From a virus (Duplodnaviria > Heunggongvirae > Uroviricota > Caudoviricetes), in the IMG/VR virus record IMGVR_UViG_2648501130_000004: a DNA stretch of 19,480 nt; one strand, given 5' to 3'. The position numbers and the translations under genes were made by a program. The notes under the pieces were generated by a model that was given only the letters and a program-made list of their open reading frames with translations, was not told the DNA's origin and made no database searches. Every line of letters begins with the position of its first letter. Positions within the stretch are counted from its first letter, which is position 1. Shown here one piece after another: positions 1-3,614 of this stretch.

Positions 1-1224
1 ATGGCGTTGTCTGATGCGTGGTTGCGTTCAGTCGTTGGAAAGGAACGTGATAAGGTTTTGGTTAAATCCGATCGTGATGGTCTGTCTGTCAGAGTATCAC
101 CGAAAGGTCGCGTAGTGTTCCAATATCGTTATCAATGGGCAGGGAAAGGTGAGCGTCTTGATATCGGAACTTACCCGGCAACTGGATTAAAAGAGGCCAG
201 AGAAGAAGTTATCCGTCTCCGTGGTGAACTTGAGTCAAACCGTAATCCACGATTGGTCAAGCAGGCTGAAAAACGAAAAGCTACTGAAGCCATGACGGTA
301 GAGTCTGTGATCCGTGCCTGGTATGAAGCATATTGTGTAAAAAATAAAAAAGGTTCTGAACAGATACTCCGCTCGTTTGAGCTGCACCTGTTCTCTAAAA
401 TCGGGAATATCCCTCACGATGCAGCTACATTGCATGATTGGTTAGAAGTCCTGGAGCCTCTTAGCACTAAGACTCCAGCAATAGCAGACCGATTGCTAAT
501 TAACGCAAAGCAGGCCCATGTCTGGGCGTATAAGAGAAAGCTCATTGAAACTCGCCCGCTGTCGGATATCACGGGTAAAGATATGGATATCCGTAAAGGT
601 CAGAAGAAACGGTTTCTGACACATGATGAAATTAAAATCCTTTATGCTGCGATCGATGGTTCTCGAATGGTTCCTAAATACCGGGCCTTCATTAAGCTAT
701 TGCTGCATTTTGGCTGCCGTAGTTCAGAGCTAATTACTGCCAGGGTGGGCGATTTTGATTTCATTAATAAGGTATGGACTGTACCACCAGAACGACATAA
801 GACTGGAGAGATAACAGGCGAACCGCTAAAGAGGCCCATTATTGAACCGGTGGAGGAGCTTATAAAGAACGCTATCTCTATGAACAATGGTTCCGATATG
901 CTTTTTACTAAGGAAGGAAGCAGGGAACCCGTTGGTCGAACATCATTGCAGTCGCTGCCTTACAATTTAATGCAGTACGCATGGAGGCGTTTGGGGCATC
1001 AATTCCCTCATTGGTCTCTTCATGATTTGAGGCGAACAGCACGAACAAACTTTTCTGATCTTACTGCTCCTCATATTGCAGAAATAATGCTCGGCCATAA
1101 ACTGCCAGGGGTTTGGCAGGTTTATGACAAGAGCGATTATCTAGAAGAACAGCGTAAAGCATATCAGGCATGGTGGGAGAGAGTTGAATCGATCGTTACT
1201 TGTACTGGCCCAGAATCTACCTGA
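1..1224 (+). CDS. int: Tyrosine site-specific integrase, P4-like family with N-terminal arm-binding (DUF4102-like) domain
   Basis: 407-aa ORF; N-terminus LSDAWLRSV...LSVRVSPKGRVVFQYRY...GTYPATGLKEAREE typical of P4-type arm domain; C-terminal HDLRRTARTN...LGHKL...VYDKSDY catalytic-domain motifs. Confidence 0.9.
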   Translation: MALSDAWLRSVVGKERDKVLVKSDRDGLSVRVSPKGRVVFQYRYQWAGKGERLDIGTYPATGLKEAREEVIRLRGELESNRNPRLVKQAEKRKATEAMTVESVIRAWYEAYCVKNKKGSEQILRSFELHLFSKIGNIPHDAATLHDWLEVLEPLSTKTPAIADRLLINAKQAHVWAYKRKLIETRPLSDITGKDMDIRKGQKKRFLTHDEIKILYAAIDGSRMVPKYRAFIKLLLHFGCRSSELITARVGDFDFINKVWTVPPERHKTGEITGEPLKRPIIEPVEELIKNAISMNNGSDMLFTKEGSREPVGRTSLQSLPYNLMQYAWRRLGHQFPHWSLHDLRRTARTNFSDLTAPHIAEIMLGHKLPGVWQVYDKSDYLEEQRKAYQAWWERVESIVTCTGPEST

Positions 1225-1480
1225 CAGCTTGCGTAGCCCTGACAGTCTGTTTTGAGCGAACAGTGGACATTTTCAATGGCATTCTTGAGTAGGTTACGCT
1301 TAGACCAGAAGTAAGAGGTGATAGAATTATCAACAATACATAAAACATAGGGGATCCTTATTGATTTATTGATCTTGACCAACTTATGTGATGCAGTATG
1401 TCTTTAACTTGTATTACTATTATCTTTATCTTTATCTTGTTGTTTCTAATAAACTTATCTTATTTCAGAAAGGAGTTTTT

Positions 1481-3181
1481 ATGCATTTAGTCACGAAATC
1501 TTATTTCGATGCCTTTTGCAAAGCATTCGCTGCGCCCTATGAGGAGACCAAAAATTTTGAGGCGTTTGTGAACTATTGTGCTTTTTCAAAATACTCAGGC
1601 GACAAAGTTGAGGTCAGTGATCTTGTGTATGAAGGCCCGGACCCTGGTATTGATGGAGCATTTTTATTTTTAGACGACAGAGCCATTTTTTCAACTGAAG
1701 AACTTCAGGAGATTTTCCAAAACTCACGTCGCGAGTTTCAAGTTTCATTAGTATTCACGCAAGCTAAGTCATCGGAGAAGTGGAGCAAACAGGAAATAGA
1801 CTCTTACATTGCGTCAATAAGAGATTATCTTTCACCAGCGCCACAACAACCCCACAGTGAATATCTAGCGGACTTTAAAAAAATGTTCAACTTGATATTT
1901 GCTAATATCGGCAGAGTCAAAAATGGCCTTCCAGACTTATACGCATATTTTTTTAGTGCTGCACAAAATACAGAGGCCAGAGAAATAAAAGCTGCATTTG
2001 CATCGGGTGAAAAAAGCTTAAAGTCACTCGGGTTTTCACATGAAACATCCTTCATTATGGCTCACAAAGACATGATTCATGAGCTTTGGCTTGCTGCGGA
2101 AGGTCCAATAGAAGCTAAACTTCCTACAATAGGCTATGCTCCATTCCCAGCGGCCCCTAATATTAATAATGCCTATGTAGCTACAGTCAAAGCTCGTAGT
2201 TTTATTGATTCTATACTTAAAGACAAAAATGGAAACCCTCGAAAAAAATTATTCGAAGAAAATGTTAGAGATTTTCTGGGAATTGATGGTGACGTAAATT
2301 CAGAAATTGCAGGAACACTAGATACTGATGGAAAAAAAGCAAGATTTGGTTTAATGAATAATGGAGTGACAATAGTTGCATCAAGCGTGAGGCCTGCAGG
2401 GCAAGAAATTTTTATACGAGATTTTCAAATTGTTAATGGATGTCAAACGTCTAATGTTCTTATATCAAAAGACATTCAAGTAGATGAATCAGTTAGTTTA
2501 ATGATTAAATTAATTGAAACCGATGAGCCAGCGATCCTTGATGACATTGTACGAGCTACGAATAGACAATCTAAAGTTGAAGATGCACAGTTCATTTCAA
2601 CGCTAAAAAAATTAAGGGAATTAGAACATTATTTTAATGCTAAAGGTGCTATTGAAGGAAATAAAATTTATTTTGAGAGAAGAAAGGGGCAGTATAGTTC
2701 AGAAAGTATAGCTCCAGTACGCATATTTGATATCAGAGAAGTTGCGCGAGCATATGCTGCTATTGTTATGATGAGACCAGATTATTCCAGTCGTTATCCA
2801 AATAGGTTAACTGGTGACTTACTTAATGAGGTTTTCTCTTCCGATGCCCTCGAGGATGATTATTATATATCTTGCTATTGCTTGTATAGGCTAAAGGCTC
2901 TTATCTCAAATAAGAGGTTTGATGGGAAGTATTCAAAATTACGCTGGCATATTCTAACTGCTGCGTCAAAATACTGTGGTAATAATTATAAGGCTTGGGG
3001 GTTCAAAAATAAAAATGAAGCTCTTCATAACTTATTCTCAATGAATGATGGGGAGTGGTTTGAAAAACTTGAGAGTTTAGTAAAAATAGCTATACCAGAT
3101 CCGGATATTTCTCGAGACTTACTAAAGTCGCAGCCTTTAACATCAACGATTCTCAAAAGTGTTGATAGCGTACCTAAATAA
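1481..3181 (+). CDS. Large AT-rich accessory protein, candidate abortive-infection/defence protein (AIPR-like, tentative)
   Basis: ORF track gives 1388..3181; the likely start is ATG 1481 preceded by AAAGGAG. GC about 28-38 percent in sampled lines versus 50-60 percent in the backbone. Central FQIVNGCQTSNV motif that I associate with the AIPR family. No Walker A motif seen. Confidence 0.6.
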   Translation: MHLVTKSYFDAFCKAFAAPYEETKNFEAFVNYCAFSKYSGDKVEVSDLVYEGPDPGIDGAFLFLDDRAIFSTEELQEIFQNSRREFQVSLVFTQAKSSEKWSKQEIDSYIASIRDYLSPAPQQPHSEYLADFKKMFNLIFANIGRVKNGLPDLYAYFFSAAQNTEAREIKAAFASGEKSLKSLGFSHETSFIMAHKDMIHELWLAAEGPIEAKLPTIGYAPFPAAPNINNAYVATVKARSFIDSILKDKNGNPRKKLFEENVRDFLGIDGDVNSEIAGTLDTDGKKARFGLMNNGVTIVASSVRPAGQEIFIRDFQIVNGCQTSNVLISKDIQVDESVSLMIKLIETDEPAILDDIVRATNRQSKVEDAQFISTLKKLRELEHYFNAKGAIEGNKIYFERRKGQYSSESIAPVRIFDIREVARAYAAIVMMRPDYSSRYPNRLTGDLLNEVFSSDALEDDYYISCYCLYRLKALISNKRFDGKYSKLRWHILTAASKYCGNNYKAWGFKNKNEALHNLFSMNDGEWFEKLESLVKIAIPDPDISRDLLKSQPLTSTILKSVDSVPK

Positions 3182-3187
3182 AGAGAA

Positions 3188-3206
3188 GGGAAGCTTATTG
3201 CTTCCC
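3188..3206. terminator. Stem-loop (GGGAAGC-ttatt-GCTTCCC) after the AT-rich gene; T-rich only on the minus-strand side
   Basis: Perfect 7-bp inverted repeat with 5-nt loop directly after stop codon 3179-3181; on the minus strand it is followed by TTCTCTTTATTT. Confidence 0.4.
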
Positions 3207-3419
3207 AATAAATTAACACACTTATAGAACCCTTGACTTAAACTTTTTACTGGTTCTCTCAGATATCGATAATTTTATAGGTTGTATCATAGCGTGATCG
3301 TCTTCAAGAGAAACAACTTAACATTAAATTAGCAACGTTTGCTCTTGGCACAGACTTGACTGTCAGATTAGTTTGGTCTGTGCCATAGATATGTCAGCTC
3401 CCATCTGAGATAATACACG

Positions 3420-3614
3420 TTACTCAATAACTCCAGCAAATCTGTATATCTTGCGTGATGCCCATTTATTTGGGCAGGATTTAATATCAGGATCTGGAAA
3501 GTCAGGCCTGTATTTCTGGCCAGTTCTCCTGTTTACGCTGTTCCAGCGAAGAACAGTCGATACTGAAACGCCACAGAAGTCGGCGACTTGTTTAGTTGTC
3601 ATTAAGTTGTTCAT
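3420..3614 (-). CDS. xis: Excisionase / AlpA-like small HTH DNA-binding protein
   Basis: 64-aa ORF; N-terminus MNNLMTTKQVADFCGVSVSTVLRWN resembles excisionase/AlpA HTH; start ATG overlaps the upstream stop (TAATG) with GGAGGTG RBS. Confidence 0.55.
   Translation of the reverse strand: MNNLMTTKQVADFCGVSVSTVLRWNSVNRRTGQKYRPDFPDPDIKSCPNKWASRKIYRFAGVIE

Follow-up and report, generated by a model that had tools for sequence, protein, structure and literature searches.

An AbiU/AIPR-family gene in a low-GC cargo cassette between the integrase and excisionase genes of a defective lambdoid prophage of Escherichia coli

We analysed a stretch of 19,480 nucleotides of prophage DNA (Caudoviricetes; IMG/VR record IMGVR_UViG_2648501130_000004), hereafter the window, and focused on a gene close to its left end. 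This gene lies at 1481-3181 on the plus strand and encodes a protein of 566 amino acids followed by a stop codon (RefSeq WP_001419254.1). To its left lies a tyrosine integrase gene (int; 1-1224, plus strand; 407 amino acids; Pfam Phage_integrase, Arm-DNA-bind_3 and Phage_int_M), which forms the left backbone flank, and the first gene of the right flank, at 3420-3614 on the minus strand, encodes an excisionase-like helix-turn-helix (HTH) protein of 64 amino acids (xis). Judged by its profile matches, the 566-amino-acid protein belongs to AbiU/AIPR, a known family of single-gene proteins for anti-phage defence.

The open reading frame (ORF) caller had reported one long ORF in the interval, running from a GTG at 1388 to 3181. 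On the sequence, the true start is the ATG at 1481 and not this GTG, because the ATG is preceded by a ribosome-binding site, AAAGGAG (1469-1475, plus strand, read from the sequence, 5 nucleotides before the ATG), because the homologues share an invariant MH..V start, and because RefSeq uses the same start; the stop codon is TAA at 3179-3181. An earlier reading of the window, made from its letters without database searches (the sequence-only reading), had described a 567-amino-acid ORF behind an AAAGGAG ribosome-binding site. Both the long ORF and the ribosome-binding site are real, but the protein has 566 residues, 567 being the number of codons with the stop included.

That reading had also proposed a resemblance to AIPR abortive-infection proteins, and profile searches agreed with it. 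Pfam AIPR (PF10592) matched residues 258-518 over profile positions 1-292 of 308 (148.4 bits where the cut-off is 25; E 5e-43), the PADLOC AbiU model PDLC02357 matched residues 3-563 over profile positions 3-535 of 537 (E 2.3e-111, 371.6 bits), and PHROG 1841, described as Abi-like abortive infection mechanism, matched with E 2e-70. The motif behind that proposal, FQIVNGCQTSNV, lies at residues 315-326, within the Pfam AIPR match. Its N319, G320 and Q322 do not vary among 54 aligned relatives at 20-73% identity, and all conservation counts given here were taken from this alignment. As had likewise been stated, there is no NTPase motif, in that no Walker A motif is present in the 566-amino-acid protein. 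The family is large, with 3,553 clusters at 50% identity (E <= 1e-3; 1.84 billion representatives searched), most of them of ~560-680 amino acids and aligning from residue 1. All 32 aligned homologues matched Pfam AIPR, Pfam scans of these 32 relatives at E <= 10 gave no second domain family, and when all PDB chains were searched with the family profile, the one match was a chance match (E 0.87). Models of MzaE matched the AIPR core only (residues ~250-406), and the NCBIfam MzaE model scored 37.7 bits against a cut-off of 1050. AIPR proteins linked to restriction-modification (RM) systems and MzaE thus have the AIPR core in common with the protein studied here, whereas no RM or Mza genes lie near its gene; no methyltransferase or restriction gene was found in the window or beside four examined orthologues. 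The identification itself was already available: RefSeq names the identical protein 'AIPR family protein', standard pipelines already flag this AbiU gene, and AbiU has been reported from prophages and satellites. Membership in this known defence family is therefore not a new finding.

The structure model predicts a restriction-endonuclease-like (PD-(D/E)xK) fold for the N-terminal part of the protein (1616-2230, plus strand; approximately residues 46-250), and the nearest nuclease-domain matches include the modification-dependent enzymes MspJI and AspBHI. Identity to FokI- and MspJI-type PD-(D/E)xK cleavage domains is ~10%, however, and the putative motif takes the form D-X35-QAK with an inserted helix; furthermore, the protein carries neither an SRA nor a FokI-type recognition domain, its partner being the AIPR core in reversed order, with the nuclease first. 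The putative catalytic residues are encoded on the plus strand at 1652-1654 (D58; conserved in 54/54 relatives), 1760-1762 (Q94; 53/54) and 1766-1768 (K96; 46/54), and we infer that the three meet in one putative site. A glutamine at the (D/E)xK position is compatible with catalysis because MspJI is active with the motif DX20QAK, in which Gln355 helps to bind Mg2+ (PMC3479186); the motif of AspBHI is given in its own paper as DX20EAK, so that QAK is found in MspJI and not in AspBHI. The AIPR core follows at 2252-3034 on the plus strand. Thirteen of its residues are present in all 54 relatives (N261, R263, N273, N293, N294, G295, T297, N319, G320, Q322, N361, Q363 and R400), and its invariant motifs are NVRD, NNGxT, NGCQTS (nucleotides 2435-2452, plus strand; residues 319-324), TNxQ and ERR. 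Since these invariant residues almost all have amide, guanidinium or hydroxyl side chains, their pattern suggests binding of nucleic acid or nucleotides rather than metal catalysis.

The same arrangement is found in lactococcal relatives. A 589-amino-acid AIPR protein of Lactococcus cremoris plasmid pEPSC2 aligns with the window protein in BLASTP (E 9e-28, 24% identity over 458 amino acids); it scores 590 bits on the AbiU model, is followed by a 341-amino-acid ORF, and has all conserved motifs in register with the window protein. The sizes of these two products match those of AbiU1 and AbiU2 of pND001, and we take the 589-residue protein to be AbiU1. AbiU of Lactococcus lactis pND001 (AbiU1, or AbiUi) has the same nuclease-like N-terminus and AIPR core in ~570-590 amino acids, and the motifs D...QxK, NVRD, NNGxT, NGxQTS and TNxQ are common to the E. 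coli and the lactococcal AbiU-type protein. Both are single-gene systems on a mobile element, covered by the models PADLOC PDLC02357 and DefenseFinder AbiU. However, the E. coli gene lacks an AbiU2-like (HEPN) gene downstream, the next gene being the convergent xis, and it is borne by a prophage whereas AbiU is plasmid-borne in Lactococcus. According to PMC13064643, a 2026 review that summarises the work of Dai 2001, lactococcal AbiU delays the transcription of phage genes and reduces plaquing by a factor of 10 to 100, an effect for which AbiUi is enough on its own. An AbiU has also been described as being countered by the Vibrio phage anti-defence protein Surt (preprint, bioRxiv 10.1101/2024.06.14.598830). 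No biochemistry for the AbiU family was found in the papers searched.

The gene sits in a variable, low-GC cargo cassette of ~2.06 kb at ~1270-3327, delimited by homology breaks and a GC minimum. BLAST homology to six related phages (cdtI, 2H10, Stx2c_PV98-693, Stx1_JNE122398, Stx2c_EH0430 and PhiR63_1) can be followed as far as 1206-1238 (faintly to ~1265) and is found again from 3328-3371 onwards; the edges are thus approximate, the left one lying between 1237 and 1270 and the right one between 3327 and 3371. The foreign segment is therefore wider than the 1388-3206 that the sequence-only reading had proposed. No other 2,058-bp stretch of the window is as low in GC as the cassette (35.9%, z -3.4), the value for such stretches elsewhere being 47.9 +/- 3.5% (range 41.5-54.6%). 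The AbiU gene itself has 36.9% GC and 27.9% GC at third codon positions, at which the neighbouring genes have 40-51%; the integrase gene has 45.4% GC and the remainder of the window 47.9%. The claimed contrast in composition between gene and prophage is thus genuine, although the backbone measured 42-55% GC and not the 50-60% that had been given. The one pair of repeats found to flank the cassette is an inverted pair of 25 nucleotides (1239-1263 and 3342-3366, 72% complementary, common CTGACAGTC), which brackets it within the conserved flanks; the pair may be due to chance and could matter for cassette exchange.

At the same junctions, the six related phages hold five different other cargos of 1.2-2.3 kb and 32.5-36.7% GC, between flanks that are 94-97% identical. 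The cargo of cdtI is the CHAT-domain protein BovA of the Borvo system (PADLOC E 2e-241; Pfam CHAT E 7e-06), and that of Stx2c_EH0430 is a defence-type dGTPase (PADLOC E 6e-105). The remaining three matched unannotated PHROG families only: a 239-amino-acid protein (gp29) in 2H10 (PHROG 8440), a 515-amino-acid protein with a hydrophobic N-terminus in Stx2c_PV98-693 and Stx1_JNE122398 (PHROG 13820), and a 377-amino-acid protein in PhiR63_1 (PHROG 7779); the 515-amino-acid ORF is interrupted in Stx1_JNE122398. The slot corresponds to 1237-3371 of the window and, in our numbering of the relatives' loci, to L001:1737-4033, L002:1732-2917, L004:1507-3381, L005:1439-2847 and L007:1539-3322. We also searched 5,426 complete E. 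coli genomes for an empty site, using a 710-nucleotide query made of both flanks joined: 1,088 of these genomes matched the flanks, and in none of them did the two halves lie within ~855 bp of each other. In phage lambda itself xis and int abut, and the sequence-only reading had expected nothing between the two genes in collinear prophages; for the present group this expectation was wrong. By contrast, its interpretation of the gene as foreign cargo is supported by composition together with the replacement of the cassette in relatives. The int-xis junction of cdtI/2H10/Stx-type prophages thus acts as a cargo slot that accommodates AbiU, Borvo, a dGTPase and three unannotated proteins. A description of this slot in cdtI/2H10-like phages was not found in the papers searched, which is not proof that it is undescribed. 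The defence hotspots of temperate phages and satellites such as P2 and P4 (Rousset et al. 2022) likewise have conserved flanks around interchangeable low-GC defence cargos, and AbiU itself is reported among the P2/P4 cargos; the present slot differs from them in phage family (lambdoid, cdtI/2H10-like) and in position (int-xis).

The position between int and xis and the nuclease-like fold might be taken to indicate a part in the life cycle of the prophage itself, for example that of a nuclease for recombination, excision or DNA processing acting with the products of these two genes. However, relatives with near-identical int and xis carry unrelated proteins in its place (a CHAT protease, the dGTPase and the three unannotated proteins), and such replacement of the cargo beside near-identical int and xis means that the gene is not needed for integration or excision. 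Furthermore, orthologues occur outside prophages, among housekeeping genes. We therefore regard a role in the prophage's own life cycle as extremely improbable.

At an identity of at least 98%, the AbiU cassette is present in 59/5,426 complete E. coli genomes (60 records). Sixty records likewise cover at least 80% of a 5.2-kb query running from int to yfdR, and the equal counts fit a single int-xis context in E. coli. Orthologues with 70-86% identity are found in Enterobacter mori, Kosakonia sacchari, the Pseudomonas fluorescens group and Burkholderia ubonensis, where each of four examined genes is solitary and lies between unrelated housekeeping genes, with different neighbours each time. This context fits a single-gene system and, as far as context goes, bears out the single-gene reading made earlier. 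The four orthologues (loci L009, L011, L013 and L014) are 36-45% GC in surroundings of 52-69%, that is, 14-24 points lower: 36 versus 54% in Enterobacter, 38 versus 52% in Kosakonia, 40 versus 61% in Pseudomonas and 45 versus 69% in Burkholderia. Because all of them are AT-rich whatever the host, a low GC content does not reliably point to recent arrival and may be intrinsic to the gene instead of recording the time since transfer; recent acquisition, as proposed by the sequence-only reading, is no more than suggested. At the protein level, 70-76% identity is maintained across Enterobacteriaceae, Pseudomonas, Burkholderia and alphaproteobacteria, and dozens of residues never vary, which argues for strong purifying selection. 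As judged from these comparisons, the gene travels alone, under strong purifying selection, and is AT-rich wherever it lands.

Our overall reading, which we consider probable, is that the gene encodes a single-gene defence protein of the AbiU/AIPR family, carried in a self-contained AT-rich cassette and acting as a phage-triggered nuclease. The comparisons show the family, the domain fold, the conserved motifs, the solitary context and the cassette; that this protein defends and cuts DNA, what its AIPR core does and what triggers it we infer, as follows. The AIPR core would be a sensor or regulator that binds a cue from the phage, either nucleic acid or nucleotide, and that keeps the N-terminal D...QxK nuclease silent in the uninfected lysogen. 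Infection by another phage would release the nuclease, which would cut DNA, either that of the phage alone or that of the host as well. Phage gene expression would then stall and the population of lysogens would be protected. Several observations weigh against this reading. Identity to the lactococcal AbiU-type protein is only 24%, and the effect reported for lactococcal AbiU is modest (PMC13064643). K96 is replaced by E or T in 8/54 relatives, so that the triad is not universal, and in the model a helix at residues 72-81 separates the strand after D58 from the QAK strand, an arrangement that differs from the canonical hairpin. Furthermore, a promoter tool gave no sigma-70 promoter on the plus strand upstream of the gene, and the best candidate of a relaxed promoter scan, TAGACC-15-TAGAAT, matched at 9/12 positions with a poor 15-nucleotide spacer. 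A terminator scan found no terminator between int and the AbiU gene; given the lack of a convincing promoter, read-through from int is therefore possible.

The lack of a good promoter would also suit a passenger with no current role in this host, that is, a horizontally acquired gene that is silent (for example repressed by H-NS) or a selfish nuclease gene, kept because it resides in a defective prophage that is fixed in its lineage. Xenogeneic silencing typically acts on very AT-rich DNA, just 59 of the 5,426 genomes have the cassette, and the prophage is defective, tail-fibre fragments following Q where genes for lysis, terminase and head are missing. A passenger would not be expected to show the conservation across genera described above, however, and the frame is intact, at a DNA identity of at least 98%, in 59/60 records, the exception being a frameshift-ridden plasmid record. 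The slot, moreover, holds a defence-type gene in several relatives. We thus consider a passenger role very unlikely, and return to the defence reading.

A member of the same family could also confer direct immunity, in which case a ParB-like module would license the nuclease in the manner of GmrSD, BrxU and SspE, only phage DNA would be cut and the cell would survive. In these systems modified or foreign DNA is recognised by DUF262, a nucleotide-binding domain of the ParB-like type, which licenses the attached nuclease, and in ParB/Srx folds DGQQR or GGCHR motifs lie at a strand-to-helix junction. In our model, NGCQT likewise falls where a strand (309-319) gives way to a helix (321-329). Consistent with such a relationship, AbiU1/AIPR has been placed with COG1479/DndB in the ParB superfamily (PMC3632139), and the matches to the modification-dependent MspJI and AspBHI point in the same direction; the weak, delayed phenotype of lactococcal AbiU, as given in PMC13064643, fits either mode. 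GmrSD/BrxU/SspE and DndB would share the two-module logic of a ParB/Srx-like module with a nuclease, although the similarity is not statistically secure here. In contrast to the N-terminal PD-(D/E)xK domain of the present protein, the nuclease of GmrSD/BrxU/SspE is a C-terminal DUF1524 domain of the His-Me type, and the AIPR motif N-G-C-Q-T, where theirs is DGQQR, has neither the Asp nor the Arg of DGQ(Q/H)R. Furthermore, HMMER searches of the 32 relatives at E <= 10 gave no DUF262, ParBc or DndB signal, and its discoverers classed the lactococcal system as abortive (PMC13064643). On balance, we consider direct immunity unlikely, and the broader reading of a phage-triggered defence nuclease, which would cut either the DNA of the phage alone or that of the host too, is the one that we prefer.

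Two more specific proposals can be made: (a) that the AIPR core is a strongly diverged nucleotide or DNA switch of the ParB/sulfiredoxin type, with NGCQT in place of DGQQR, that licenses an MspJI-like D...QxK nuclease on phage DNA, and (b) that the int-xis gap of this lambdoid family is an always-occupied defence slot. We put them forward tentatively and consider them rather unlikely. If (a) were true, it would provide the first mechanism for an Abi system that has been unexplained since 2001, and if (b) were true, gp29 of 2H10, the 515-amino-acid membrane protein of the Stx2c phage and the 377-amino-acid protein of PhiR63_1 would be new defence genes. That the slot already holds AbiU, Borvo and a dGTPase makes these three unannotated cargos candidate new defence genes. 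For AbiU, the analysis offers a concrete catalytic hypothesis, namely a D58/Q94/K96 nuclease under an invariant AIPR core. In practical terms, the ~1% of sequenced E. coli that have the gene would possess one more prophage-borne defence, which could reduce the reach of phage therapy or of phage typing.

Around the gene, DNA homology to the orthologues starts only at the ribosome-binding site (~1469-1481) and is confined to this site and the coding region; conserved non-coding DNA that might represent a mobile unit or an operator was looked for around the orthologues and none was found. The sequence-only reading had pointed to repeats in an AT-rich leader, and a tandem repeat of TTATCT (3.2 copies; 1420-1438, plus strand; TRF score 38) is indeed present there, but it is short and is not conserved upstream of the orthologues. 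Since homology is restricted to the ribosome-binding site and coding region, the TTATCT repeats are not a conserved element, and we assign them no function. The hairpin noted after the stop codon was found as the stem-loop GGGAAGC-TTATT-GCTTCCC at 3188-3206 (7-bp stem, 5-nucleotide loop), 7 nucleotides after the stop, with a folding free energy (dG) of -13.3 kcal/mol (z -4.4) on the plus strand, though its T-rich tail (TTCTCTTTAT) is on the minus strand and the scan classed it as terminator-like for the minus strand only. It sits between the convergent AbiU and xis transcription units and may be as much an insulator against leftward transcription of the xis operon as the end of the AbiU transcript. 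A minus-strand ORF at 1164-1382 (72 amino acids), which overlaps the end of int, was considered by inspection only and was set aside for lack of support.

The backbone on either side of the slot is shared with the relatives. The integrase DNA is 94-97% identical to that of the integrases of cdtI, 2H10 and Stx phages. The 3420-3614 ORF gave weak HTH_17/MerR matches below the Pfam cut-offs, and the homologous ORFs of phages cdtI and 2H10 bear the annotation excisionase; the ORF is unannotated in the RefSeq record of identical sequence (NZ_CP029122.1). The right flank of the slot contains a conserved backbone hairpin (3347-3384, minus strand) 35 nucleotides downstream of the xis stop, with a 10-bp stem (GGCACAGAC...GGTCTGTGCC), a dG of -20.2 kcal/mol (z -4.7) and arms (GGCACAGA/TCTGTGCC) that the six relatives share with little or no change. 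This hairpin forms the right-hand limit of the slot and could be a terminator or an RNA-processing site of the leftward operon. Beyond xis follow DUF551 and then yfdR-, yfdQ- and yfdP-like genes, and the first 5.2 kb of the window are 100% identical to a prophage adjoining yjjG in E. coli chromosomes such as that of AR434. A 33.7-kb circular 'plasmid' with the AbiU cassette, p13P484A-1 of E. coli 13P484A, was considered as an excised, active phage and rejected, being a frameshift-ridden, incomplete prophage copy, and was not used. It carries adjacent reverse-transcriptase and TIR-domain genes beside a DinI-like gene (L016:17627-19256), on the far side of int, which look like a second, retron-like defence cargo; the assembly seems to be of poor quality.

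By its gene content, the prophage is lambdoid and is defective within the window. The Q antiterminator gene (13609-14403) is followed by an orphan 141-amino-acid ORF, after which tail-fibre fragments come directly; genes for lysis, terminase, head and tail are absent after Q both in the window and in the RefSeq record. No other PADLOC match was obtained among the other window proteins tested. Two other low-GC islands were observed, at 14260-15189 and 16861-17285 (<38% in 400-bp windows). The 141-amino-acid ORF (14684-15109), which gave no Pfam or PADLOC match, lies in the first of these, just downstream of Q, the classical position of a moron. The region 13609-18100 contains C-terminal fragments of tail-fibre genes and tail-fibre assembly genes in both orientations, and resembles the remnant of an invertible segment.

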